Positions 5,126 through 41,994 of a stretch of 46,436 nt of DNA are shown here, piece by piece (within the stretch, counting starts at the first letter, position 1; each line of letters starts with the position of its first letter). The stretch comes from Candidatus Hydrogenedentota bacterium. Lineage in GTDB: Bacteria > Hydrogenedentota > Hydrogenedentia > Hydrogenedentales > SLHB01. The notes below the pieces were generated by a model. The model had not been told where the DNA came from and did not search any database. It saw nothing but the letters and a program-made list of their open reading frames with translations. The stretch covers positions 1 through 46,436 of the forward strand of contig JAWXCN010000194.1 of NCBI GenBank assembly GCA_034408725.1. The letters are read 5' to 3'. The translations under genes and the position numbers were made by a program.

Positions 5126-7336
5126 ATGTATGAGGGTTACTACGGACTTCGGGAGAGACCTTTCAATCTCACGCCCGACCCGAAATACCTCTATCTGAGC
5201 GAAAAGCACAAAGAAGCATTCGCACATCTGCTCTTTGGTATCAAGAACCGCAGTGGGTTTGTGATGGTCACCGGTGAAATCGGGACAGGAAAAACGACCA
5301 TCTGCCGGACGCTGCTCGGCCAGCTCGACGAACACACCGAAGTCGCCTTTATTTTCAATCCCTGCCTCTCGCCCGAGGAATTGTTGCGCAAGATTAACGA
5401 AGACTTCGGGATCAAGACTGTCGCGACAACGGTGCGCGGTCTGATTGATGAGTTGAATGCCTACCTGCTTGAAAAGAACACCAAGGGCAAGAATTGCGTG
5501 CTTGTCATCGATGAAGCGCAGAACCTTACGCCAAGCGTGCTCGAACAGATCCGGCTGTTGTCGAACCTTGAGACCGAAACCCAGAAGCTGCTTCAAATTG
5601 TGCTGATAGGGCAGCCGGAACTCATGCAGGTGCTAGCGTTGCACGAGCTTCGCCAACTGAACCAGCGCATTACGGCGCGGTACCATCTGCATCCGCTTAG
5701 CCGAAGCGAGACGATGCAATATGTCGCGTATCGAATGCGGGTGGCAGGCGCCCGCCGGCGGATTTACTTCACGCCCGTAGCGGTCAAACAAGTCTACAAA
5801 TCGTCCAACGGTACGCCTCGCGTCATCAATGCGTTATGCGATCGGGCATTGCTGATTGGGTACACCAAGGAAGCGCGTGACATTACGCCGGCGATCGTGC
5901 GGCAGGCGGCCAAAGAAATCCGCGGCGAGCAACCGAAGCGAAGCATCTGGCCGCGGTTCCGCGCATGGTTGCCGAATCCAGCCGTGATTACGGCGGGCGT
6001 TGCAGTGTTGTTGCTGGCGTTGTTCCTGCGTGATCGCAACCTGTTCGCGCCCGGGCCGGGAGTTCCCGCAACAAACAATGGCGCGGCTGCTTCCACCGTT
6101 TCACATCCAGCCGCTGCAAGCTCGAGAGAGATAGCGTTTGCCGCACCCGTACCTGCGGAGAAATCCGTCCAGGTGTCGTCTCCGCCAGTGTCGGGTCCAA
6201 GTGACACCTCGTTCGCGGGGTTGATAGACCGGCAAGACCAGGTTGCAAGCCGGAACTCGGCAGTGCAAAGCCTTTTGCGCGCGTGGAACCTGGCGCTGCT
6301 CACGAACCTTCCCAAGGATGATTCCGTTCAATCGCTCACAACGTTTGCTGACGATAATCGGCTGGACTGTGAAATCTTGTCAGTGACGCTTGAACAACTC
6401 GAGGCGATAAACCTGCCTGCGTTGATCAAACTGCATGGACACAGCCGATCCATTTGGACTGCCCTCGTAGGAGCGCAAGGCGACGATCTGAAGATTGCGA
6501 TGGCGTCGACCGAAGCGACGCTTGTGCCGCGTGACCGTGTCGCCGAGTCGTACTTAAACGAGGCAATCGTGCTGTGGAGGGACACGTCTCCCGAAACCGC
6601 GGTCTTAAAGAACGGAATGAACGGAGAGGACGTGCGCGTGTTGCAGGTGCAATTGCGCGCACTTGGCCGGCTTGAACGCGCTCCGACGGGTACCTTCGAT
6701 GGCGCGACGGCGGAAGCGATTCGAACGATTCAACGCGAGACCGGCCAGAATGCCGATGGTGTGGCCGGAAAACGCACGCGGATGGTGTTGAGCAGTTGGT
6801 TGCCGGGATTCAATACGCCGGGCCTGCGCGCAATGCCCGCGGTGTTATTGGATAACGACGATGGGGCCGACACCGTGCCTCGGGGCGGCGAAGCGCCGGA
6901 CGCGAAAGCGGCCACGGCAAAACCGGACGCCGCGACAGGAGAACCCGCGCGCAAAAAAGAAGCGCGGACCGCACCCAAACGTAACAGCGAAAAGAAATTG
7001 GCCGCCGAAACCAAAGCTACCAGACCAGCCACACCCTCCGCTGCGAAGGCAGAACCGGAGACTGTGAATCCGCCGGCTTCCCCGCTTGCGCAATTAGAAT
7101 CCGCTTCACCACCCGGTCCGGCGCCGCCAATTGCCACCGAGGAATTGCCAAAGCCTGGCGAGCCACAGGTTATTCAGGCGCAACAATCACCTGCGGCAGG
7201 TCCAGTCGTTGCGGTAGAAGCGCCCGCAATAACTCCAGTTCCCGTCGGCGGGCAAACGCAGGACAGCTCACCGGCATGGACCGGCGGGCTGCTGTTGGTA
7301 CCCGATGACGCGGCCGCCGCCGGCGCCACGCCATGA
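5126..7336 (+). CDS. exeA: ExeA/GspA-family AAA ATPase with TM helix, C39-like domain, peptidoglycan-binding domain and Pro/Ala-rich tail
   Basis: MYEGYYGLRERPFNLTPDP start; Walker A GEIGTGKTT; Walker B VIDEAQNL; LRLLSN, GQPEL, GTPRVINALCDRALL motifs; TM segment; PG-binding GEDVRVLQ...DGVAGKRT. Confidence 0.9.
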   Translation: MYEGYYGLRERPFNLTPDPKYLYLSEKHKEAFAHLLFGIKNRSGFVMVTGEIGTGKTTICRTLLGQLDEHTEVAFIFNPCLSPEELLRKINEDFGIKTVATTVRGLIDELNAYLLEKNTKGKNCVLVIDEAQNLTPSVLEQIRLLSNLETETQKLLQIVLIGQPELMQVLALHELRQLNQRITARYHLHPLSRSETMQYVAYRMRVAGARRRIYFTPVAVKQVYKSSNGTPRVINALCDRALLIGYTKEARDITPAIVRQAAKEIRGEQPKRSIWPRFRAWLPNPAVITAGVAVLLLALFLRDRNLFAPGPGVPATNNGAAASTVSHPAAASSREIAFAAPVPAEKSVQVSSPPVSGPSDTSFAGLIDRQDQVASRNSAVQSLLRAWNLALLTNLPKDDSVQSLTTFADDNRLDCEILSVTLEQLEAINLPALIKLHGHSRSIWTALVGAQGDDLKIAMASTEATLVPRDRVAESYLNEAIVLWRDTSPETAVLKNGMNGEDVRVLQVQLRALGRLERAPTGTFDGATAEAIRTIQRETGQNADGVAGKRTRMVLSSWLPGFNTPGLRAMPAVLLDNDDGADTVPRGGEAPDAKAATAKPDAATGEPARKKEARTAPKRNSEKKLAAETKATRPATPSAAKAEPETVNPPASPLAQLESASPPGPAPPIATEELPKPGEPQVIQAQQSPAAGPVVAVEAPAITPVPVGGQTQDSSPAWTGGLLLVPDDAAAAGATP

Positions 7337-8121
7337 GTTCGATTCTCGATGCACTGCGGAAGCTGGAGAAGGAGAAATCTTCCCGGGAAGAACCGCAGGC
7401 CGCAACTCTCCGCGAGCTGACGCTGGAGCCGGACTTTGAGGCGCCGGCAGGTGGTGGCGCCGGGAGCGCCGGGAGCACCATCGGATTTATCATCGCCGGC
7501 GCGCTGATACTCGCGGGAATTGCAGCGGGCACGGTAACGACCGCGGTAATGCTCGCGGACAACAATTCGGAGCCGCTGCCCGTGGCTTCCGCATCGGCTC
7601 CCACACCGAGCGTGCAGCGGGCAAGCGTGCAAACTATTATAACACCTGTACCGGTACTCGACGACGAGTTGCCCGAAGAATCGGACCCGCCATCCAAACC
7701 GTTGCAGACGGCGCGAGCGGCCGTGCCCAAGTTGGAAAAAATAAAAGCGAAACCGAAACTCGAAGCGGTCACCGCGGCAACCGTGGAGAAAAGCGCGGTA
7801 GTACCGCTGCCTTCCTTGCCAATCTCCGCGCCAGAGCCTCCCGCGGCCCCGCCCGCGCAAGCGCCACTTGGGAAAATTAATTTCGACACCTTGCCGATAC
7901 TTACCGAATCGGATCGCGTGCGGCTTGGCTTGCCCCCCTTGAAAATCAATATCGTGGGAATTCCGAACACCCGCAATCCACGCGCGTCGGCGCTTATCAA
8001 CATGCAAAAAGTCTACGTCGGAGAAAACATTCCGAGCACACAGGCACGGCTGGTCGATGTGGATTTGCGCGGGGTAGCCATCGAGATCAGCGGAAACCGT
8101 TATATGGTATCGAGGCGCTAG
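7333..8121 (+). CDS. exeB: ExeB/GspB-like general secretion pathway protein B
   Basis: MSSILDALRKLEKE N-terminus typical of GspB; one TM helix; Pro-rich linker; C-terminal LKIN...ALINMQKVYVGENI domain; ATGA overlap with exeA. Confidence 0.8.
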   Translation: MSSILDALRKLEKEKSSREEPQAATLRELTLEPDFEAPAGGGAGSAGSTIGFIIAGALILAGIAAGTVTTAVMLADNNSEPLPVASASAPTPSVQRASVQTIITPVPVLDDELPEESDPPSKPLQTARAAVPKLEKIKAKPKLEAVTAATVEKSAVVPLPSLPISAPEPPAAPPAQAPLGKINFDTLPILTESDRVRLGLPPLKINIVGIPNTRNPRASALINMQKVYVGENIPSTQARLVDVDLRGVAIEISGNRYMVSRR

Positions 8122-11497: not shown

Positions 11498-13045
11498 TTA
11501 AAAGCGAAGCCGCGATTCGACTGCGAAATAATCCAAATCGTCGTCGCTCGATCCGCCCATAAACTCGAGGCCGTTCGCGAATACAAAATTGCCCTCGTCC
11601 ACGTCGTCATCCACGAACATATGGTTCCATGTCACGCGGAACATCAGTTGGTCCGAGTACTGGTATTCAATGTCCAGACCGGTGACGATGCCGACGTCGT
11701 CTCCGGATTCCTCTGTGAGAAATGAGAGCGCGGGCGCGACTGGCACGCGCCAGCCCCCCAACCCTATCGTTAGCGGCGTGTCGAACGTATCGTTCACACC
11801 CAGCTTCGACACTTCAAGCGAAGCGAAGATTTTTTCGGTGGGATGCACTTCGACACCACCTCGGATTTGGTAAAAGTTGGTTCCATTGCGGCCTTCGTCA
11901 AAGAACTCGTAATACCGCTTCGATGAGAACAGCCGATTGAACGAAACGCTGGCTTCGGGGCGATCGAAGGGATTCAGCCATTCGAGAAACGTAATATCCC
12001 GATTATCTTCTCCGCCGAAATACGCTCCGCCAAGGTAAACGCGAGGCGTCCACACCATCTCTTCAAAGGAATAGCCAATCTCCGCGTCTCCGCCCCACGC
12101 GCTGAATTCGGCCGAATCGTCTCCGTACACGAATCCGTTGTTCTTGAACAGCGAACCTACGCTGTCGGCATCGCCGAATTGATACGCTGCTTCCGCGACG
12201 TAGTCGAACGAGCCAAGCCCACCCGCGGCGCGCGCCCCCACGGTGTGCAGGTTTGTTGCGCCGTAATCGTCGAGATCGAAAATGTCTTCGAGGCGTTCGA
12301 TCGGCGCGACGAAGTTGGTGTCATTGAGCGAAGCGGCATCGCGCAGGTACAGCCAGTACACCAGAAACTCCTGTCCTTCCACCGCCGTGCACGACGCGCT
12401 CAATCCATAAAAATCGACATCCCCATCCTGCTCGCTTGCTCCGCGTTCCGCGAGTTTCGTGTACCAGCCGTCAATGGCGTAACCATCGCCGCAATACGTC
12501 AGGCGTAATCCGTCAAACGCAATTTCGATCTGCGATTGGGTTTCACCGACCAGCCAGCCGCTGCCAAGTTTAATCTGCTGCCGGCCCACGCGCATGCGTA
12601 GCGGCATTCCGAAAGTTTCGTTGGTTTCGATATAGGATTGAAGCAGTTCGACGTCGTTGCTCGAATTCGACCTTATGTCGGCCCCGGTAAGATAGTCCGA
12701 TCGGAAATCCTCGCCCCAGATTTCGAAATCGTCGAGCTCGATTACCGCGTTCACGTAATTGGTGAAGTCCGCCGATATCCGAAGTTTCGTGGTCTGTTCT
12801 ACCCACGTGCGCGTGTTGCCTTTCTCGTCGAATCCGTAGCGGCTGGAAACACCGAACGGTCCAATGGGCCGGTTGGGAAGAAAAAAGTCCGGGATGCGGG
12901 TTTCCCGTCCGGAATCCGTGTAGACATTGCTCCAGTAGCGTCCCCGGATGCGGAGCTGGCCGCCGATGGAGACGTTTTGCAACTCCGCGCCGGCTTCGGC
13001 GCATAGAATGAGTGTGGTGATTGCGATGACCAGGTGCTTATACAT
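11498..13045 (-). CDS. Alginate-export-family outer-membrane beta-barrel protein
   Basis: ATG at 13045 after a purine-rich SD; signal peptide; GGQLRIR, VGRQQIKLGSGWLVG and FDGLRL motifs; alternating beta-strand pattern; terminal Phe (SRLRF). Confidence 0.75.
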   Translation of the reverse strand: MYKHLVIAITTLILCAEAGAELQNVSIGGQLRIRGRYWSNVYTDSGRETRIPDFFLPNRPIGPFGVSSRYGFDEKGNTRTWVEQTTKLRISADFTNYVNAVIELDDFEIWGEDFRSDYLTGADIRSNSSNDVELLQSYIETNETFGMPLRMRVGRQQIKLGSGWLVGETQSQIEIAFDGLRLTYCGDGYAIDGWYTKLAERGASEQDGDVDFYGLSASCTAVEGQEFLVYWLYLRDAASLNDTNFVAPIERLEDIFDLDDYGATNLHTVGARAAGGLGSFDYVAEAAYQFGDADSVGSLFKNNGFVYGDDSAEFSAWGGDAEIGYSFEEMVWTPRVYLGGAYFGGEDNRDITFLEWLNPFDRPEASVSFNRLFSSKRYYEFFDEGRNGTNFYQIRGGVEVHPTEKIFASLEVSKLGVNDTFDTPLTIGLGGWRVPVAPALSFLTEESGDDVGIVTGLDIEYQYSDQLMFRVTWNHMFVDDDVDEGNFVFANGLEFMGGSSDDDLDYFAVESRLRF

Positions 13046-13179
13046 GGATTCCCCCTTCCCGCCGGGACGACGCCGCAGCCTTCTGTCCATGGTGATGCTA
13101 CGCAGTGTATTCGGCGCACGGGCGACGATCAAACAACACGCCACCTCTGCTATGCTGTTCGCGAGGAGGATCCGAAATC

Positions 13180-14313
13180 GTGCCGACATATGATGTTATC
13201 GTGCTGGGGCTCGGCGGCATGGGCAGCGCAACGCTATACCATCTGGCCAAACGCGGGGTCCGTGTATGCGGGGTCGAGCAGTTTGGAATTGCGCACGATA
13301 AAGGCAGTTCGCACGGCGCGACACGAATGATTCGAAAGGCGTACTTCGAACACCCGGACTATGTCCCCCTTGTCGAAAAGGCATACGGCCTGTGGCGCGA
13401 ACTCGAATTGGAATCCGGCGCGGAATTGCTCGTGCAATCCGGCCTGCTGCTTTCGGGCAAGCCCGGATCGGGATTCATTCGCGGGCTGGAAACCTGCTAC
13501 CGCGTGCATCCGCTGCCGCACGAACGGATCGATGCGGCGGAGGCCATGAATCGTCATCCGCAATTTCGTTTGCCGGACGACCACGCAGTTTACTGGGATC
13601 CAGACGGCGGGTATCTCCGCGTCGAAGGGTGTGTCGACAAGCATGTACAAATGGCGCAAAAACACGGTGCCGACGTGCTGATCCATGAGGACGTGCTGGG
13701 GTGGCGATCAGATGCAAATGGCGTTTCCATTACGACAACAAAGCGCGAGTTACACGCGGCGAAGCTGGTATTGACAGCGGGCGCGTGGACGACGCCGTCG
13801 TTTGTCGAATTGCTCGTGCCGCTTCGCGTGTTGCGGAAAGTTCAGTTTTGGTATACGTCGCCGAACATCACGGAGTTCCGCAGAGGCGCGTGTCCCGGAT
13901 ATTTTATCGAGACGGACTACGGCTCGTTTTACGGGTTTCCGACTATCAACGATCAAGGAATGAAAGTTTCAGAACACAGCGGGGGGGAACCTGTCGAAGA
14001 CCCGGACGAACTGGATCGCGGGTTGCACGCGCATGACGAAGACGGCGTGCTCCGGTTCATCACCGACGTATTTCCGTCCGTGCAACCTTCGCGGACGCGC
14101 TTTAGTGTTTGCATGTATTCAATGACCGCTGACGAACATTTTATTATTGATAGGCACCCGCGGCATCCGAATGTCGTTATTGCCGGAGGCTTCTCGGGGC
14201 ATGGGTTCAAATTTGCATCGGTGATAGGCGAAATTCTCGCGGACCTTACGATGCAAGGGAGTACGCCGCATCCAATCGGGTTCCTCGGGCTGGGAAGGTT
14301 CACGTCGTTTTAA
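13180..14313 (+). CDS. solA: N-methyl-L-tryptophan oxidase / monomeric sarcosine oxidase family
   Basis: GTG start after SD GAGGAG; YDVIVLGLGGMGSA FAD-binding; GSSHGATRMIRKAYFE; CMYSMTADEHFIID (covalent-flavin Cys region); GFSGHGFKF. Confidence 0.88.
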   Translation: MPTYDVIVLGLGGMGSATLYHLAKRGVRVCGVEQFGIAHDKGSSHGATRMIRKAYFEHPDYVPLVEKAYGLWRELELESGAELLVQSGLLLSGKPGSGFIRGLETCYRVHPLPHERIDAAEAMNRHPQFRLPDDHAVYWDPDGGYLRVEGCVDKHVQMAQKHGADVLIHEDVLGWRSDANGVSITTTKRELHAAKLVLTAGAWTTPSFVELLVPLRVLRKVQFWYTSPNITEFRRGACPGYFIETDYGSFYGFPTINDQGMKVSEHSGGEPVEDPDELDRGLHAHDEDGVLRFITDVFPSVQPSRTRFSVCMYSMTADEHFIIDRHPRHPNVVIAGGFSGHGFKFASVIGEILADLTMQGSTPHPIGFLGLGRFTSF

Positions 14314-30357: not shown

Positions 30358-30398
30358 AATCACCGGCGTCCCACCCATAGGGACGCCGGTGATTTTTT
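30358..30398 (+). terminator. Intrinsic terminator between convergent genes
   Basis: 15-bp perfect stem aatcaccggcgtccc / gggacgccggtgatt with a 7-nt loop, followed by a T tract. Confidence 0.85.
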
Positions 30399-32118
30399 AC
30401 TTTTCGACTACGACGTGGTCTTTCACGACCCCATCGGGATCGTGCGAAGTGTACTCCAGCCGATTGCCCTTGATGTCTATCGTTTGATAAAAGCCCGGCG
30501 CGGATACAACGTAGTAAGTTCCGTCTTTCGCCGATGTAACTTCCTTGCCATTTCGAATCGGGTTGGTTCGGTTGTAACGATGCGTATGCCCCGTCAACAT
30601 GAAATCCAAATGGTACTTGTCGAACAGCGCGCCCCATTTCTCACGCTGTTGATCGTAGTCGTTCTGGTATCGCGCGGCGTTCGTGTACACCGGGAAATGA
30701 TAGAGCGCAAACTTCCAGGTCGCGTCGGTTGCCGACAATTCCTTTTCCATCCAGTCGCGCAATGAATCAATCGATATGCCAATCGGCAACACAAGAAACA
30801 GCGCGTTGGCATACCGCACGGAATACGCCCGTTCCGTTGGTATACCGTCGAAGTTGATATCCGGCAACGCAAACTGCTTCAGAAACGTGCCCGGTCCGAG
30901 TCCGTCCTGATCATCGTGATTGCCGATGGCCGGCAGCGTGGGATACCGCGCCAGCGGTTCGCCCATGTACGCGAATAATTTATCCCACGTATCACGATGA
31001 AGCCCGAAATCAACGAGGTCGCCGGAGATCAACGTGAACGCCGGCCTTGGAGTGCGCGCATACGCGGCGGCAAGCGCCTTGCCCGCGGTCTCGCGGTTGT
31101 GCGTGTCCGTCAAAAATGCGAAAGAGAACGTGTCGCCATTCTCCGGCGCGGTCGTAAACTCGTACACGTCGCTCCATACATCGCGCGAAGCTTCGCCAAC
31201 CTGATAGACATAGGTTGTCCCCGGTTTTAGTCCTGACAGCACCGCGGTGAACCGGTGCGACGTGCGATCATTCGCGAGCATGCGGTCGTCGATGGTCTCC
31301 AAGGTAGCATCCACCATCTGCCGCGCATCCGATCCCTTTTCGCTAAAACGCGCCGCGCCCGTCTTCACTGCGGTGTTCGTGCGCCACAACACCGCCTGCG
31401 ACGTTTTCGGATCGCCGTTCCACGTCAACGTGATCTGATCGGGTTTGTCGGACGCCGGAAACAACGTCTCGCGAAACCCGCCGCCGGTGAGATGCGTTTC
31501 CCGCGCGCGACCGCGGAACGTCGTCAGCAGCGCATGTCCACGCAGCGACTCAGGCGCCTCCGTCAATACCAATTCCGTCCAGTCGATATACGTCATCGCG
31601 CCGGGTTCCATCGTCAGCATCGGCGGATGGGCCGGAACGAGATTGGTAATCTTGACCACGTCTCCCGCGTTCTGCGGGCCCACCGAAGCGAAATAACTGA
31701 ACCGGTGCCCATCGAACCCGTTCATCCCAAGCCCGACATGGCCCGCATCGAACTTCTTCTGCCACACCGCGTAGTTGTTCGACTCGTTCTTCACGACAAG
31801 ATCGGTCTTCGCAAAACCGGACTCCTCGAGCCAGAACGGAACCTGCGCCTGATCCATGTGCCGCATCACCGAAACCACCACCGGCACGTCCACGTCAAAC
31901 GTCCAATACGCCGATGCCAAAGCCGCGCGATCCCCGGGTGTGATGTACTCCGCCAACTTCGCTTCGTCCAGCGCCTGCAACTGCTCCAGGTTGTTCGACG
32001 CATACAACCGTGTGACGATTGCGTCCATTGCCGCATCGAGCCGCGCATCAGCGTGCGCGCACGTTGCGAGAAACAGAACGGCAACGAAAGTCCACGTAGC
32101 CTTTGCCAATGAGCGCAT
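30397..32118 (-). CDS. Secreted purple-acid-phosphatase-like metallophosphoesterase with FN3 domain and extra N-terminal domain
   Basis: Signal peptide; PDQITLTW...LSGLKPGTTYVYQVG FN3 region; DTH, SGDLVD, GNHD and GHTH metallophosphoesterase motifs. Confidence 0.87.
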   Translation of the reverse strand: MRSLAKATWTFVAVLFLATCAHADARLDAAMDAIVTRLYASNNLEQLQALDEAKLAEYITPGDRAALASAYWTFDVDVPVVVSVMRHMDQAQVPFWLEESGFAKTDLVVKNESNNYAVWQKKFDAGHVGLGMNGFDGHRFSYFASVGPQNAGDVVKITNLVPAHPPMLTMEPGAMTYIDWTELVLTEAPESLRGHALLTTFRGRARETHLTGGGFRETLFPASDKPDQITLTWNGDPKTSQAVLWRTNTAVKTGAARFSEKGSDARQMVDATLETIDDRMLANDRTSHRFTAVLSGLKPGTTYVYQVGEASRDVWSDVYEFTTAPENGDTFSFAFLTDTHNRETAGKALAAAYARTPRPAFTLISGDLVDFGLHRDTWDKLFAYMGEPLARYPTLPAIGNHDDQDGLGPGTFLKQFALPDINFDGIPTERAYSVRYANALFLVLPIGISIDSLRDWMEKELSATDATWKFALYHFPVYTNAARYQNDYDQQREKWGALFDKYHLDFMLTGHTHRYNRTNPIRNGKEVTSAKDGTYYVVSAPGFYQTIDIKGNRLEYTSHDPDGVVKDHVVVEK

Positions 32119-32210
32119 GTTGCCCCTTTGCGACGGTCCGATTTGCGATAGAAAATTGTGAGGCATGATAGTATGCCTCGAAACAATGCGGACCACGTAG
32201 AACTATCAGG

Positions 32211-33680
32211 TCACGTGCCGGCCTTTTCGTAAAACCTTGATCCAGCCTCGTTCTCCGTACGCGAAACCGTGACAAATACGATCACCTGTTCGCCGGTCTT
32301 TTCATTCACGAAGGTAAATCCATTCCAGGCACCAAGTTTAGCGTCGATCTCCGTGACGAACCCATCTTCATAATAACTTGGCATCATTACTTCGCTGCGG
32401 TGGAGGTCTGGACCGGTTCGCCCCTCGATGCGAAACTGTCCTGATGGCTGATCATTGCGCTTAAAGCGTTGTACAAATCCAAACCCAAGATGTACGGAAT
32501 CACCTGAATTGTGACTCACGAGTCGCGCAGGAATCGCATATCCGGTTACCTCTCGTCGAAAGGCTGAGGGCTCTGATTCATCGTGTACCATTTCCTCGAA
32601 GATATCCGCGACGACACCCGATTTTGCTTTACCTTTTGCCAACAATGCTGAAACAATTGGTGAAGTCATCGGCCAGGTGGACGAAACGTTCGGTCGTGGA
32701 AGTGAAGGTTTGTTTTCGCTGGGTTGCGAATTATTGTGGGCAGAGGCAAAAACACCCCCAAAAATAATGCGCGGCGCCGTCACCAGCTCGACGCCGTCCA
32801 AGGACTGAAGCCATTTCTGTACTGCGTCCCAATCCCGTGCCGGGTCATCTTGTGGTTCGGGACGAATTGCGTCGAACCGCGAAACAATCGGTGGGGTTGC
32901 GTTCGCATCAATTCTGGTAATTAATCCGTCGTGCATTTTTTTCGCCGTCGCATTGTTACCGGCCGCAAGCGTGTAGACGTGAAACTGGCAGGTGTGTAAC
33001 GCTTCGGTCTCGATTGGTTCGCGGTTAGACTCTGCTGTTGATGTGTCATGCATTCGCGCGAATACAAACACCCGTCCCGATTCCGGGTTTTGTCGACCCA
33101 TTACGGCCCATGCGTTCCACACATCCGGCACGTTCTTCATGACGGCAAAATTCACGCGGGCGCCTTTCAGCGGCTTGCCGACATCCAGCGGAACACCTTC
33201 CAGCTTTTCGCGCGTCGCTCCAAAACGTTCGCTGTACCCGACCATCGAAATAGCGGCATCTTTATATACAATCGAGAACACAAATCCCGCCGCCTCTTCA
33301 GTTTCCTTCAAAACAAACCGATTCTCTTCGTCCTTCTCGATGTATTGAAGCGGGTCGCCGGTCTCGATGGCGATAACCCATCCGTCCGCCAGGCCATCTT
33401 CTGATACAAGCCTTGAAACTCCCTCGGGATTTCGGGACAAATCACCATCCCAAAACAGCGCCGTTCCTTCGTTTAATTGGAGCCCCGACTCGGGCATTGC
33501 GCTTAGTTGCGCGAGAGCGATTTCCTTCAGAAACGGTTGATCGCCGCCCGGATCGAGCGCATCCCCGAATGTGGGGCCAGCGACGTGAAACACCCGAACG
33601 TCGTACGTCACCCCGGTAACTTGCGCCCATGCAGCAGCGCAGCACAACAGTGTCAGGGCGAATATTCCGCGTACCATCAT
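32211..33680 (-). CDS. Exported protein with two tandem secretin-core-like domains (hypothetical)
   Basis: Signal peptide; ATGA overlap with the upstream gene; N-terminal half aligns with the 33677-34402 protein; second half has LVTAPRII...TEIDAKLG..VIVFVTVSR. Confidence 0.6.
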   Translation of the reverse strand: MMVRGIFALTLLCCAAAWAQVTGVTYDVRVFHVAGPTFGDALDPGGDQPFLKEIALAQLSAMPESGLQLNEGTALFWDGDLSRNPEGVSRLVSEDGLADGWVIAIETGDPLQYIEKDEENRFVLKETEEAAGFVFSIVYKDAAISMVGYSERFGATREKLEGVPLDVGKPLKGARVNFAVMKNVPDVWNAWAVMGRQNPESGRVFVFARMHDTSTAESNREPIETEALHTCQFHVYTLAAGNNATAKKMHDGLITRIDANATPPIVSRFDAIRPEPQDDPARDWDAVQKWLQSLDGVELVTAPRIIFGGVFASAHNNSQPSENKPSLPRPNVSSTWPMTSPIVSALLAKGKAKSGVVADIFEEMVHDESEPSAFRREVTGYAIPARLVSHNSGDSVHLGFGFVQRFKRNDQPSGQFRIEGRTGPDLHRSEVMMPSYYEDGFVTEIDAKLGAWNGFTFVNEKTGEQVIVFVTVSRTENEAGSRFYEKAGT

Positions 33681-34402
33681 TTTCCCTCTCCTGTTTCCGT
33701 GTGACGCATTACGCGGACCAGCGCAATCACATGTCCGCCGTCACCTGCCATATGAACAATCGCCGACCACGTCCCGAGTTTCACGACCATCCGCTGCTCC
33801 GTGCTGGCGGTCGCAAAGACAGGCTCTCCAATTTCCAGCCGTACGCCTTCCATGGCTTTCCGCGACGCAACCCGCTGCATCACGCTCTTCCAATCGACAG
33901 AGACCGAATCTTCATCCGGCGTTTGCGACACAATGCATTCGAAACGAACAGCGGCATCGGTCGCTTTCAAAACAAAGGTGCCGTCATTGTTGCGCACAAA
34001 GTACGGAACGCTTTGGACAACTTTTATCTCCGCTGGTTCATCCAGGAGCGTGATAATGTTCGGCGTGACCAACGCGGAGGGTTCGCTGATGGTGGTCGCG
34101 CCAGTGTCTCGTGAATTCCAAGTTACCTCGCCATCCTTGATCTCCACAGTGAGTCCGGTCAGTTCGAGCTTTCCGCTCTCAATCGATGCGATTACGGGCG
34201 CAGTCACTATTTTCGGAATTTCGCGAAATGAAACTCCTGGATCGGTCACCCGGAGAGTGTTGACCTCTGGCGCCGACAACGGTTTCGCATAGAAAAGTTT
34301 CGCATCTACCCGCACCTTTTGCGGTGGGTCCCCAATGGCGGAGAACGCGCAGGCAATACCAAATGCGAGTATCGCGAAACCTGGGCATCTTGAAGGCAAC
34401 AT
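33677..34402 (-). CDS. Exported stand-alone secretin-core-like protein (hypothetical)
   Basis: Signal peptide; QKVRVDAKLFY, LVTPNIITLLDEPAEIKVVQSVPY, PVFATASTEQRMVVKLG and VIALVRV resemble the ordered conserved blocks of the secretin (GspD/PilQ) C-domain. Confidence 0.6.
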   Translation of the reverse strand: MLPSRCPGFAILAFGIACAFSAIGDPPQKVRVDAKLFYAKPLSAPEVNTLRVTDPGVSFREIPKIVTAPVIASIESGKLELTGLTVEIKDGEVTWNSRDTGATTISEPSALVTPNIITLLDEPAEIKVVQSVPYFVRNNDGTFVLKATDAAVRFECIVSQTPDEDSVSVDWKSVMQRVASRKAMEGVRLEIGEPVFATASTEQRMVVKLGTWSAIVHMAGDGGHVIALVRVMRHTETGEGK

Positions 34403-34780
34403 TTATATCTCCCTTTCGAGAGTAGGTGCGTCATTCGCTGATAGCACGCGCACACGCACCCGGCCCGGATCGAAAGCAGGGATATTCTGTCGCGCTGATG
34501 CATCGAAAATGCCGCGCAATGCCGGGTCCGGTGGGATGACGTACACCGTGCTCGTGGGTAAGCTTGCCGCGGGCGGGGGCTCGACATATGCGTGCAGCAA
34601 ATATCCAAATGCCAGACACGCGCAACAAGCCGCTGCCGTCTGCCACAGCGCCACGTTCGCAGACCAGAATCGCGGACGGTGAAGCGGGGCCTCCGCAAAG
34701 ACACGCCGCATTGCCGCATCGTGTGCGGCGGACGGTTTGGCCAAGGGGACCTTTTGCAGGCGGTCATCGAGATTATCCAT
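34403..34780 (-). CDS. Putative single-TM anti-sigma factor
   Basis: Start MDNLDDRLQ in TAATG overlap with the sigma gene, SD GGAGG; short cytoplasmic N-terminus, one TM (VALWQTAAACCACLAFGYLL), short outer tail. Confidence 0.65.
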   Translation of the reverse strand: MDNLDDRLQKVPLAKPSAAHDAAMRRVFAEAPLHRPRFWSANVALWQTAAACCACLAFGYLLHAYVEPPPAASLPTSTVYVIPPDPALRGIFDASARQNIPAFDPGRVRVRVLSANDAPTLEREI

Positions 34781-35268
34781 TACACATCCTCCTTCATCAA
34801 CGCGCGGAGTTTTTCGATGCCGCGCCGGTACCACGAAGCCGCGGTGTTCATCGAAACGCCGCACACGTCTCCGATCTCGGCAAACGTGAGACCGTTGTAC
34901 GTCTTCAACACAATGCACTCGCGTTCCTGTTCATTGAGTTGTTGCAACAGCGCATCGAGTTCCTGGGCAACAGCCGGATCGTGACCGTTGTTGCGGTGGC
35001 CTGGCAGGTCAAAGATCGATTCCAATGCGGCAATGCGCGCCTGCGCGCGGTGTTCATCCACTGCAGCGTTCCGGATCGCGCGAAACACGTACGGTCGCAA
35101 GTCGCCGGGAAGCCTGGGCCGGTTCAACACGTTGCGGAACACGTTCTGCACCACGTCCTCCGCGGCCTCGCGGGATCTTGTGAGCGCCAGCGCGTACGTG
35201 AACAATTCTTGCCGGTTCAGTTCATAGAACAACCGGACAATATCAATCGTCTTACCGCGCATGCCCAA
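34780..35268 (-). CDS. ECF (sigma-70 group 4) RNA polymerase sigma factor
   Basis: Region 2 AEDVVQNVF...YVFRAIRNAAVD; region 4 LNEQERECIVLKTYNGLTFAEIG...NTAASWYRRGIEKLR. Confidence 0.92.
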   Translation of the reverse strand: MGMRGKTIDIVRLFYELNRQELFTYALALTRSREAAEDVVQNVFRNVLNRPRLPGDLRPYVFRAIRNAAVDEHRAQARIAALESIFDLPGHRNNGHDPAVAQELDALLQQLNEQERECIVLKTYNGLTFAEIGDVCGVSMNTAASWYRRGIEKLRALMKEDV

Positions 35269-35392
35269 ATTGCGCCCCCATTCTCATCCAGTTCGCACTA
35301 TACCACGCGCAGATCGATTCGATTTGTGCATCGCGCTCGACTATTGAGCCGAATGCGTATACGATCCTCGGCACTCCCGAAAGGAAAACCGG

Positions 35393-35800
35393 TTGAAACC
35401 CAAACGAAAATCACGCCCGTCGCCGCAACGCGAACCCGCAAAACTCGAAGGCGTCGGCGATATCCTTGCGTCCCTCACCAAAAAAACCACGCTGGGCAAG
35501 CGGTTGAAGGAAGCGCAGATTTGGCAACAATGGCCGAGCCTCGCCGGCCAGCGATTGTGTACGCATGGCCATCCCGTCACCGTGAAGGACCAAACCTTGC
35601 ACGTGGAAGCCTATAGCTCCGTGTGGGTGAACAAGTTTGCGTATCACAAATGGGAGATCATCGGCCGCGTAAACCGCATGGCGGGGCAGGAGCTCATCCA
35701 CGATATTTTCGTGACGCTGCAACAAGACGAGGGGGAACCGGAAAACGATGAAGTGAGGAAGGCAGGAAGGCAGGAAGGCAGGAAGACAAAAAGCGAGTAG
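35393..35800 (+). CDS. dciA: DUF721 / DciA family replicative-helicase loader
   Basis: IWQQWPSLAG...HPVTVKDQTLHVEAYSSVW...II.RVN pattern; directly upstream of gyrB; SD AAGGA before TTG. Confidence 0.8.
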   Translation: MKPKRKSRPSPQREPAKLEGVGDILASLTKKTTLGKRLKEAQIWQQWPSLAGQRLCTHGHPVTVKDQTLHVEAYSSVWVNKFAYHKWEIIGRVNRMAGQELIHDIFVTLQQDEGEPENDEVRKAGRQEGRKTKSE

Positions 35801-35932
35801 CGAACGGCGTAAGACGAGGAAACGGCCGCTTGGAGTTCCGCCGCGCTCTCTCCGGCACGCGCCGCCCTCGGCGATGGAGCCGCTACTTCCTGCCTTCCTC
35901 ACTTCCTGCCTTCCTGCCTTGTTCCCTGCCTC
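35750..35932. repeat. Inverted pair of (AGGAAGGC)n octamer tandem arrays
   Basis: gaagtgaggaaggcaggaag (35750-35769) is the exact reverse complement of cttcctgccttcctcacttc (35886-35905); both arms continue as further octamer copies. Confidence 0.85.
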
Positions 35933-35963
35933 AAAAAATTCCCGCATTTTCCCCTCTTTCCAG

Positions 35964-35993
35964 TTGTGCTTAACCCCGCGAATTTGCTATACT
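35964..35993 (+). promoter_or_regulatory. Putative sigma70 promoter for gyrB
   Basis: TTGTGC-18 nt-TATACT with extended -10 TG. Confidence 0.5.
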
Positions 35994-36004
35994 TGGGTAC
36001 TTAG

Positions 36005-38494
<2,490 letters not shown>

Positions 38495-38569
38495 CGTTTT
38501 TACGGAATCGTTTTTTGGATAAATATCGCTATTGAAGTGCATGTGTTCTGAAACGGCGCGGAGAACGAT

Positions 38570-39073
38570 GTGCGGATTCCCAAATTCTTCAGAAAAAGGG
38601 CAGATCTGCTTTTCGAGAATGCTAAGTTATTGGTACCCGCAGCGCACGCGTCGGCAGTCACGATGTTTGTCCCGATGCTAGATAGATTTCCTGCATTGGA
38701 GTCTGTCGACCCTAAACATTGGGATTTCATTCTCACTGTGGCAGCAGTGTTTCTTGCCGCGACGAGGCTTAGTGGCTCCCGGATCGGAAGTGTTCGCGAG
38801 GAAAAGTTAATGGAAATAGTTGCTCAACAACTTAACGTCTGGGATGCAGATGGGATTTTAGCGTTCGAAGACTGTAAAACGTTCTTCGAAATCGAGTTCG
38901 ACCGATTATCAAGTACGCAGCACCCACAAGAATTTGTGGCAGTAGACGCTCTGGGCCTCTGGATTGTATGGAACGCAATGGAACGTCAACCCGACGTTCA
39001 AAAAGATATGATTTTGGTACGCACGGTCGGCACAATAGTGGTAAATGGATTCTTCAATTGGTGGAAAACCTAA
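38570..39073 (+). CDS. Hypothetical protein (AT-rich insert between gyrB and gyrA)
   Basis: 167-aa ORF, GTG start with SD GGAG; helical, Trp-rich; no recognised motif. Confidence 0.65.
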   Translation: MRIPKFFRKRADLLFENAKLLVPAAHASAVTMFVPMLDRFPALESVDPKHWDFILTVAAVFLAATRLSGSRIGSVREEKLMEIVAQQLNVWDADGILAFEDCKTFFEIEFDRLSSTQHPQEFVAVDALGLWIVWNAMERQPDVQKDMILVRTVGTIVVNGFFNWWKT

Positions 39074-39119
39074 TGCCAATAAGCATTGTGCTTTCTCTTG
39101 CCGAACTGGAGTAGGTCGA

Positions 39120-39422
39120 ATGGAATGGAACTTAGATACGATGAATGCCTTGCGCGCGTGGTTGGGCCTCGAAAACTGGTTCAAAGAAAGTCCACATGAG
39201 GATGCACGATTTTACAAATTCGTAAATTGTGTTTGGCAGGAAAGTCAACAACTTTGGGACGAGTCCGATACACGAGACACCATAATGCGTGAAGCTTCGA
39301 AACTACACCCTGGGTTCTCTGATTTGGCTAATATTGTGGCCGACCGCGTAGCCGAAGGAACGACGATTTTGGATTTTCTGACTCACATAAAACAACAAAA
39401 AATACCAGTCACATTCGATTAG
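39120..39422 (+). CDS. Hypothetical protein (AT-rich insert between gyrB and gyrA)
   Basis: 100-aa ORF from ATG 39120 with upstream GGAG/AGG; W..W...P.ED.RFYKFV segment; no recognised family. Confidence 0.6.
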   Translation: MEWNLDTMNALRAWLGLENWFKESPHEDARFYKFVNCVWQESQQLWDESDTRDTIMREASKLHPGFSDLANIVADRVAEGTTILDFLTHIKQQKIPVTFD

Positions 39423-39483
39423 CGGTAACCCGCGTCATCAGATGAGAAACTATGCCGTACAATTGCCCTAGGAAAATTGCCGA

Positions 39484-41994
<2,511 letters not shown>

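Follow-up and report, generated by a model that had tools for sequence, protein, structure and literature searches.

Secretin-core proteins encoded with an ECF sigma factor and a candidate anti-sigma factor suggest a machine-independent ring or sensor of the secretin type

Secretins are viewed as the terminal part, in the outer membrane, of large machines, namely the T2SS, the T3SS, the type IV and Tad pili and the filamentous phages, and their N-domains are seen as required both for the assembly and for the coupling to the machine. They are also known envelope stressors, with the Psp system responding to secretins that are mislocalised. On the side of regulation, it is known that the tail of an anti-sigma factor can be bound or shielded by a partner protein, as RseB acts on RseA, CnrX on CnrY and the TonB-dependent transducer on the FecR-type anti-sigma factor, and that the cell-surface signalling of this last type has a cut-down variant in VreA-VreR-VreI.

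Here we analyse a window, that is, a whole stretch of 46,436 nucleotides from a Hydrogenedentota genome, of which the minus strand carries four consecutive genes, for an ECF sigma factor, a 125-aa candidate anti-sigma factor and two further proteins, of 241 and 489 aa. The features, in the direction of transcription, are as follows.

35301..35329, minus strand: promoter-like bipartite motif ahead of the sigma gene, GCAyAA-N16/17-CGTGG(T/A)A, from a pattern search
34780..35268, minus strand: sigma factor of the ECF type (group IV), 160-162 aa, probably starting at the ATG of 35262, from Pfam and NCBIfam
34403..34780, minus strand: putative anti-sigma factor, 125 aa, from its position and conserved homologues
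33677..34402, minus strand: single secretin-core protein, 241 aa, a signal peptide and a bare secretin domain
32211..33680, minus strand: 489-aa protein, tandem of two cores, from profile and model evidence
33039..33617, minus strand: secretin-like core at the N-terminal end of the 489-aa protein, spanning about residues 22-214 and paralogous to the 241-aa family, limits taken from the model
32223..33008, minus strand: secretin-like core at the C-terminal end of the 489-aa protein, spanning about residues 225-486, with the ELVTAPRI motif in it
32160..32179, minus strand: terminator-like hairpin just past the 489-aa gene, from a consensus scan, with a 7-pair stem and a weak T tail

Compared with the canonical secretins (GspD/PulD, PilQ, InvG/YscC, RcpA/CpaC and phage pIV), the module proteins have a homologous C-domain with the same predicted fold, but they lack the N0-N3 domains, the S domain and the GGL...VPxLGxLF segment, they have a motif of their own and tandem or triple cores in one chain, and they come with a dedicated sigma/anti-sigma pair and with no T2SS, T3SS, T4P, Tad or phage genes nearby. 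A precedent for a reduced secretin is the mitochondrial GspD, which, according to the excerpted part of PMC8134430, is likewise reduced to the C-domain or part of it, without N- and S-domains, forms pores and has a divergent C-domain paralogue, GspDL. In the same excerpt the mitochondrial proteins still have other Gsp components and separate N-domain proteins beside them, of which the module has none, whereas the module is found in bacteria, is putatively sigma-controlled and has tandem cores that are fused; the two are likened here by description.

With FecA-FecR-FecI the module has in common the three-part logic in which a beta protein of the envelope is encoded together with a single-pass anti-sigma factor and an ECF sigma factor, but the operon proteins give no match to TonB_dep_Rec, STN or FecR and the anti-sigma candidate has just 125 aa. 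In a further system, which is reported as restricted to Bacteroidota, an ECF/anti-sigma pair is also physically linked to an element of the outer membrane and governs an envelope process; there, however, one polypeptide runs across both membranes, while the beta proteins of the module are separate and have the predicted secretin fold. As with RseA-RseB and CnrY-CnrX, the short anti-sigma candidate may rely on a co-encoded periplasmic partner, although the folds of those partners are unrelated to the secretin cores. In the literature searched, no earlier description of a sigma-linked stand-alone secretin-core module was found, and the word secretin occurs 0 times in the text and one supplement of the ECF re-classification paper, the other supplements of which might describe the group.

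The arrangement of the four genes agrees with the original prediction of a run without gaps, since all the open reading frames lie on the minus strand at the coordinates given above and the three predicted junctions read exactly so in the sequence: the TAA of the sigma gene and the ATG of the anti-sigma gene have one base in common (TAATG), the ATG of the 241-aa gene abuts the anti-sigma TAA, and the ATG of the 489-aa gene overlaps the TGA of the 241-aa gene (ATGA). The hairpin at 32160..32179 is the probable end of the operon; as evidence for a terminator it is weak, because the whole region has 7 such sites while 8.5 are expected from shuffles. The downstream phosphatase gene was considered as a part of the module and rejected, a homologue of it adjoining just one other module (L086). 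Secretion-machine genes of the T2SS, T3SS, T4P or Tad type, the neighbourhood of which had been denied at the outset, were found in none of the 28 further open reading frames scanned in the 46-kb window. The sequencing-run search for the locus listed no RNA run as carrying the sequence.

The sigma factor matches Sigma70_r2 (E 1.2e-9) and Sigma70_r4_2 (E 2.9e-13) of Pfam without region 3, and it reaches 70.1 bits against the NCBIfam model TIGR02937, the cut-off of which is 42.9, with no equivalog-level NCBIfam model being reached. Having regions 2 and 4 only, a length in the range of about 160-200 aa and a score above the cut-off, it belongs to the ECF (group IV) factors, and its orthologues are 39-55% identical to it. 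The gene that follows it holds its place across the homologues, which is the position of a membrane anti-sigma factor, and the binding of its product to the sigma factor is putative. As read from its sequence, this product would have a cytoplasmic part of about 42 residues, a single membrane helix at about 43-65 and, in the periplasm, a tail of 60 aa in which a TVYxIP strand is conserved. Homologues stand at the equivalent position in 25 other distinct sequences. No anti-sigma or sensor domain was found in the family, with 0 of 25 members giving a meaningful E against Pfam; the match of the candidate to the NCBIfam model CU044_5270 is weak (E 3e-4, below the cut-off), and the HxxxCxxC motif is absent from its sequence.

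We now turn to the 241-aa protein. The five blocks that had been likened to the secretin C-domain, from QKVRVDAKLFY through VIALVRV, are all present in its translation in the proposed order. Against the Pfam family PF00263 the protein gives E 7e-4 and 19.7 bits, below the gathering cut-off of 27.5, with residues 110-211 falling on positions 10-115 of the 169 of the model, and the 489-aa protein gives no match to this family. Among the relatives of the 241-aa protein, however, 42 of 60 reach E <= 0.01 against PF00263, with 1.7e-14 as the best value. When the family profile is compared with the PDB sequences, all the 19 matches at E <= 1 are secretins (best E 1.7e-7), and when it is compared, profile to profile, with the seven secretins of the genome itself, a probability of 96.8% and E 2.2e-10 are obtained. 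The order of the conserved blocks, including the (L)S-x-P-x-I-x-T strand, is the same in the family as in the canonical secretins; P114, R181, G192 and P194 are invariant, and the motif R-x-x-I-x-G-V-x-L-D-V-G-x-P is specific to the family. Judged by these comparisons of sequence, the 241-aa protein resembles the secretin C-domain more closely than chance would explain.

The alignment of the family to the seven secretins of the genome ends at the position of DGQTLVxGG. The consensus of these seven continues with a GGL...(V/I)PxLGxxPxLGxLF segment, and VPxLGxLPVLGxLF has no counterpart in the alignment of the 241-aa family, in line with the loss that had been claimed for the GGL...IPxLGxLF segment. 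Equally, there is no room for N0-N3, as had been expected, since the secretin-like part begins at residue 25, directly past the signal peptide, and neither the 241-aa nor the 489-aa protein gives a match to Secretin_N, STN or a further Pfam domain. It is noted that the 241-aa protein, the 489-aa protein and an alignment, when used in word-index searches of proteins, returned only the query and one relative, that tblastn of the 241-aa protein against plasmids gave no match, and that the ten family members that were looked up are all unnamed or called hypothetical protein.

The predicted fold leads to the same assignment. The AlphaFold2 monomer model of the 241-aa protein has a pLDDT of 83.8 and a pTM of 0.77, and in the comparison with 48,161 chains the top 12 are all secretins, with Z 9.3-12.2, while the next chain, which is not a secretin, has Z 5.3. 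With Foldseek and VIA the model matches whole secretin-domain spans (InvG 299-526, pIV 174-403 and Vibrio GspD 315-593), so that the predicted match to the solved secretin domains runs from the first to the last strand and goes beyond a fragment; the ESM Atlas structure rows for the protein are secretin clusters throughout, the nearest being clusters of roughly 215 aa with 732 members, most commonly from Pseudomonadota. The reading of this protein as a mini-secretin thus stands, with the predicted fold extending over the whole secretin domain and with the N-domains absent. It should also be noted that, because the monomer fold is confident (pTM 0.77) and the model superposes on secretin protomers with an rmsd of 4-6 A over about 140 residues, a compact form of the 241-aa protein outside a ring is possible.

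For the 489-aa protein, the N-terminal half aligns with the 241-aa family in hhalign with 98.2% and E 3.2e-14 over residues 64-212, and in a six-frame search the 241-aa protein likewise hit this core (E 0.0024); on this profile evidence the half is a paralogue of the 241-aa family. In VIA-align, the 27 best chains for residues 225-486 of the model are all secretins with Z 7.9-10.8, and whole domains are matched, for example residues 173-403 of pIV. A profile of 12 C-halves gives 97.3% and E 2.4e-11 against the 241-aa family over the last ~100 residues, while the C-half as a single sequence gives only 14.7% against that family and the profile only 29.7% against the canonical secretins; with the PDB sequences the profile has no match, and with Pfam 0 of the 12 C-halves match. 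No Pfam family is matched by the whole protein either, its model is moderate (pLDDT 63.8, pTM 0.49), and the whole-chain Foldseek search is weak, the sole match at E <= 1e-3 being a TbpB chain with a probability of 0.28. The description of the protein as a tandem double core is upheld by the paralogous N-half and the predicted secretin fold of the C-half, and for both proteins the structural check that had been named beforehand has come out in favour of the secretin fold. In the same gene slot of other genomes there are single-core, two-core and three-core (815-820 aa) proteins, which fits units that stand side by side in one assembly.

The sigma gene, the anti-sigma gene and a secretin-core gene occur together at 25 of the 30 loci found from the secretin side, at 21 of the 24 found from the sigma side and at 5 of 5 in a further, smaller comparison; the co-conservation with the ECF/anti-sigma pair, which had been set beforehand as a test, is thereby borne out by the first two counts. 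The module is found in Hydrogenedentota genomes and in records that their depositors labelled Acidobacteriota and Verrucomicrobiota, and its distribution is patchy: within the phylum 35 of 135 genomes have it, but none of the 4 from the window's own genus. The locus is a self-contained module that moves as a unit; besides an ECF sigma factor and a single-pass candidate anti-sigma factor, it encodes secreted proteins made of secretin cores only.

Upstream of the sigma gene, the motif at 35301..35329 recurs at a similar distance in 12 of the 14 distinct upstream regions of orthologues, where the pattern was derived from these same 14 sequences and shuffled sets give 0.03 matches per 14. The motif is bipartite with a CGT core, and its dependence on the sigma factor is assumed. 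In the own genome it occurs 2 times against 3 for the reversed control pattern, and in five relatives together 13 times against 11. As these counts are at about the level of the control, no further target emerges and the only output that can be seen is the operon itself, for a pattern that was drawn up post hoc and may be too strict to catch other targets. An extra match in the own genome lies upstream of an OmpA/Pal-like gene and is not claimed, because away from the operon the pattern is about as frequent as its reversed control.

What the module suggests, taken together, is a ring or sensor of the secretin type that needs no secretion machine. In the mechanism that we propose, the sigma factor, once released from the anti-sigma factor, would transcribe its own operon from the motif at 35301-35329, and the secretin-core proteins themselves would be the main output. 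Exported by their signal peptides, the cores would pack side by side, either alone or as a mixture of single and tandem forms, into a secretin-like outer-membrane ring or channel that lacks an N-domain vestibule and has no machine as its partner. The 60-aa tail of the anti-sigma candidate, which is too short for a sensor domain and carries the conserved TVYxIP strand, would read the state of the core proteins (free, assembled or mislocalised) and so close a feedback loop. A complex prediction for the 241-aa protein (residues 25-241) with the tail (residues 66-125) scored 0.03 against a mark of 0.32, with no controls folded, and speaks neither way. We hold the proposal as a whole, an autoregulated, machine-free ring the state of which is read by the anti-sigma tail, tentatively, as something that may well be the case. 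Its more specific versions are doubtful, namely a self-assembling, sigma-controlled ring of one-, two- and three-core subunits that opens a large regulated outer-membrane channel on demand, or a sentinel secretin the assembly state of which is read by the anti-sigma tail, making a dedicated monitor of secretin and outer-membrane biogenesis. Against a ring it must be said that both proteins lack N3, which, in the excerpted part of PMC8134430, GspD requires for pore assembly, and that they lack the GGL...VPxLGxLF segment that all the seven secretins of the genome have kept.

The same absence of the two assembly elements favours a reading in which there is no channel and the cores are regulatory partners only, that is, periplasmic or membrane-associated co-sensors that bind or shield the anti-sigma tail while the regulon lies elsewhere. 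This reading is also favoured by the translational coupling of the core genes to the sigma and anti-sigma genes, by the anti-sigma candidate having no recognisable sensor domain and yet a conserved tail strand, by the sigma and anti-sigma factors being far better conserved than the secretin-like proteins, and by the protection of anti-sigma factors from proteolysis by transducers, as given in the excerpted part of PMC11637429. But no separate regulon came to light, with no other copy of the motif rising above the control in six genomes, the full secretin-domain fold is predicted to have been kept, and the duplication into two and three cores exceeds the need of a simple binding partner. We consider this reading unlikely, though it deserves to be taken seriously.

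Since seven secretin genes of the genome score above the cut-off of PF00263 and the cores retain the strands of which the barrel wall is built in solved secretins, the cores might instead be accessory subunits that co-assemble with, cap or poison ordinary secretin rings and thus tune secretion or piliation under the control of the sigma factor. This is considerably harder to accept, because no secretin or machine gene stands beside the module in the window, the promoter pattern has 0 matches in the 47,794 bases of the seven secretin loci, and the module is in 0 of the 4 genomes of the same genus. Finally, the Pfam score of the 241-aa protein under the gathering cut-off and the want of a Pfam family for the 489-aa protein would be expected if the likeness to secretins were due to chance or if the genes were decaying relics of a lost secretion system. 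We regard this as highly improbable, in view of the intact homologues in 83 cluster representatives and in 35 of 135 genomes, the keeping of the four invariant residues, the profile E-values of 1e-10 to 1e-14 and a fold match that lies 4 Z units over the next fold.

What is at hand is a conserved family that has the barrel core only, as a single, a fused double or a fused triple form, and that is tied to its own ECF/anti-sigma pair rather than to a machine. If the cores form rings, they would define a minimal self-sufficient secretin and a new kind of regulated outer-membrane channel, and would offer a small, tractable model for the assembly and gating of secretins; if they are partners of the anti-sigma tail instead, a new type of envelope sensor would be at hand. 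Either way, a fold assignment and a genomic context are provided for two unannotated protein families.

In addition, we note that one genome has a second full module, and that a search of BFVD gave a single match, to an unnamed 409-aa viral protein.

It is noted that four minus-strand genes, which together span window positions 32211-35268, encode a sigma factor, an anti-sigma candidate, a 241-aa protein made up of a bare secretin domain and a 489-aa protein with two secretin-type cores in tandem. The three gene junctions are those described originally, namely TAATG (the TAA of the sigma gene and the next ATG having one base in common), TAA abutting ATG, and ATGA. The operon lies between a purple-acid-phosphatase-like gene and dciA-gyrB-gyrA, with the features arranged as follows.

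30397-32196, minus: purple-acid-phosphatase-like metallophosphatase (Pur_ac_phosph_N + Metallophos), directly 3' of the operon, beyond the hairpin
32160-32179, minus: weak terminator-like hairpin, 3' of the 489-aa gene, the last of the operon
32211-33680, minus: large tandem-core protein, 489 aa
33677-34402, minus: small secretin-core protein, 241 aa
34403-34780, minus: anti-sigma candidate, 125 aa
34780-35268, minus: sigma factor, 160-162 aa (likelier ATG at 35262)
35301-35329, minus: promoter-like motif GCAyAA-N16/17-CGTGG(T/A)A, upstream of the sigma gene
35393-41994, plus: dciA, gyrB and gyrA in a row, divergent from the operon promoter region

For the 241-aa protein, the Pfam secretin family PF00263 gives E 7e-4 and 19.7 bits, below the cut-off of 27.5, with residues 110-211 aligned to model positions 10-115 of 169. 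An exhaustive phmmer search of 1.84 billion cluster representatives returned 83 proteins at E <= 1e-3 (10 of them, the query counted, at E <= 1e-10), mostly 210-290 aa long, and 60 of the 83 form the family alignment A1, the 23 rows left out being for the most part under 200 aa or over about 275 aa. PF00263 is matched at E <= 0.01 by 42 of these 60 members (top E 1.7e-14), and the 19 PDB sequences matched by the A1 profile at E <= 1 are all secretins, headed by Vibrio PilQ (1.7e-7). Moreover, hhalign aligns A1 with the domains of the seven canonical secretins of the same genome at 96.8% (E 2.2e-10), the alignment stopping at the 'DGQTLVxGG' position; while all seven canonical secretins keep the segment VPxLGxLPVLGxLF, the 241-aa family has no counterpart of it, as had been noted.

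The predicted structure is consistent with this assignment. The AlphaFold2 model computed on A1 is all-beta (pLDDT 83.8, pTM 0.77), and Foldseek against the PDB gives 38 matches at E <= 1e-3, those listed being all secretins. With VIA-align, 28 secretin entries are found at Z 9.4-12.2, the next row being at Z 6.8, and model residues 25-241 lie on whole secretin domains (InvG 299-526, pIV 174-403, Vibrio GspD 315-593). In a search of 48,161 chains, which is independent of Foldseek, the best 12 are secretins at Z 9.3-12.2, followed by a drop to 5.3, and the ESM Atlas rows for structure are secretin clusters throughout (TM 0.57-0.67). The secretin-spanning part of the model begins at residue 25, and the protein has no N-domains, again as noted.

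For the 489-aa protein, Pfam has no match in the protein or in 15 relatives (0/16). Its N-half (residues 64-212) aligns with A1 at 98.2% (E 3.2e-14). The C-half as a single sequence aligns weakly (14.7%), and A4, a profile of 12 C-halves, aligns over the final ~100 residues at 97.3% (E 2.4e-11); the C-halves in A4 bear an ELLSAPRVT motif resembling the (L)SxPxIxT strand of secretins. The AlphaFold2 model from 16 sequences is moderate (pLDDT 63.8, pTM 0.49), and Foldseek of the entire chain is weak. With VIA-align, residues 225-486 cover whole secretin domains, pIV 173-403 being first, and the 27 top chains for the second core are all secretins at Z 7.9-10.8, in agreement with the double core proposed originally.

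Pfam detects only regions 2 and 4 in the sigma factor, which scores above the cut-off of the NCBIfam ECF superfamily model (70.1 bits versus 42.9). The 125-aa protein has no family match; its topology, as read from the sequence, is ~42 residues in the cytoplasm, then one hydrophobic helix and a tail of 60 aa bearing a conserved TVYxIP strand. The sigma, anti-sigma and small genes are consecutive in all five loci from relatives found via the small protein, with the large gene next in two of them. A profile of the large family has matches in 35 of the 135 genomes of the phylum (24 of 66 genera) and in none of the four genomes of the window's own genus, and the trio of sigma, anti-sigma and A1-type genes is present in 25 of the 30 loci that it returned; two of the other five lie at contig ends, a third is a 121-aa fragment, a fourth has the anti-sigma gene at the edge of the locus and the last is a true orphan. 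An independent search with the sigma factor gave 24 loci in named genome records, 21 of them with the anti-sigma gene and an A1-type gene downstream, the exceptions being one locus that stops at the sigma gene, one with no A1 match in the 700 bases to the contig end and one 28%-identical non-orthologue. The observation behind the original prediction is borne out and its structural and syntenic reading upheld, including the co-conservation with the ECF/anti-sigma pair.

Module-bearing records are mostly labelled Candidatus Hydrogenedentota by their depositors, other labels on the sigma-side records being Acidobacteriota, Verrucomicrobia, Lacunisphaera, Opitutales and 'uncultured Nitrospiraceae'. 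Several near-identical modules (loci L067, L071, L081, L086 and L087) are labelled 'uncultured Nitrospiraceae' or 'Nitrospirales', and their closest counterparts carry the Hydrogenedentota label; the labelling of these third-party assemblies seems unreliable. A homologue of the phosphatase adjoins only one other module, that of L086, in which it lies 5' of the sigma gene. The gene slot is occupied by small only, small and large, large only, large then small, or a three-core protein of 815-820 aa, the last being directly 3' of the anti-sigma gene in L041 and L072. Among the variants L039, L102 and L103 are the large-then-small order, two complete modules within one genome, and a 506-aa A1-type gene that is an orphan, lacking a sigma gene within 2.5 kb. 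Extra A1-type genes occur in four genomes: one full trio, one sigma gene with an A1-type gene, one orphan and one not assessable.

Of 14 distinct orthologous upstream regions, which otherwise have no common sequence, 12 contain the promoter-like motif at a comparable distance; shuffled sets give 0.03 matches per 14, a flattering figure as the pattern was derived from these same sequences. Elsewhere in six genomes its frequency is about that of a reversed control pattern, and it is absent from the seven canonical secretin loci, so that the operon itself is the only visible target. The sole other exact match in the same genome (contig C146, 13243-13269, minus) has an OmpA/Pal-like lipoprotein gene ~160 bases downstream and, after it, a TPR (CpoB-like) gene, both labels coming from reading the translations rather than from a family scan; as the pattern is about as frequent as its reversed control, this match may be due to chance.

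We regard the fold, homology, architecture, synteny and motif of the module as established. Based on these, we propose an autoregulated ECF module whose output would be its own secretin cores. The cores would assemble into a ring or channel without N-domains, and the anti-sigma tail, with its TVYxIP strand, would sense their state. Against the ring stand the absence of N3 and of the GGL...LF segment and the compactness of the monomer model, and the main rival is that the secretin cores serve solely as partners of the anti-sigma tail. In the literature searched, neither such core-only proteins nor an ECF group linked to secretins is described, and the word 'secretin' is absent from the text and one supplement of the ECF re-classification paper. 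The nearest precedents are the mitochondrial GspD, which like the core-only proteins here is C-domain-only and has a paralogue, GspDL (PMC8134430), and Dma1, a dual-membrane anti-sigma factor (PMC10927553).

Note also that no secretion machine adjoins the operon, as stated originally: none of the 28 other window ORFs scanned belongs to T2SS, T3SS, T4P or Tad. The seven canonical PF00263 genes of this genome, all above cut-off, are on contigs C129, C176, C39, C180, C240 and C273, two of them adjoining each other on C273. At 5126-8121 (plus) the window encodes a 736-aa protein with AAA_22 and PG_binding_1, which is the architecture of the secretin-assembly factor ExeA/GspA, followed by a 262-aa ORF without a Pfam family; as this pair is 25 kb apart from the operon, we do not connect the two. 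The window also encodes a Fic/DOC family protein with a SoFic-like C-domain (1853-2971, minus) and an Alginate_exp-type outer-membrane beta-barrel (11498-13189, minus).
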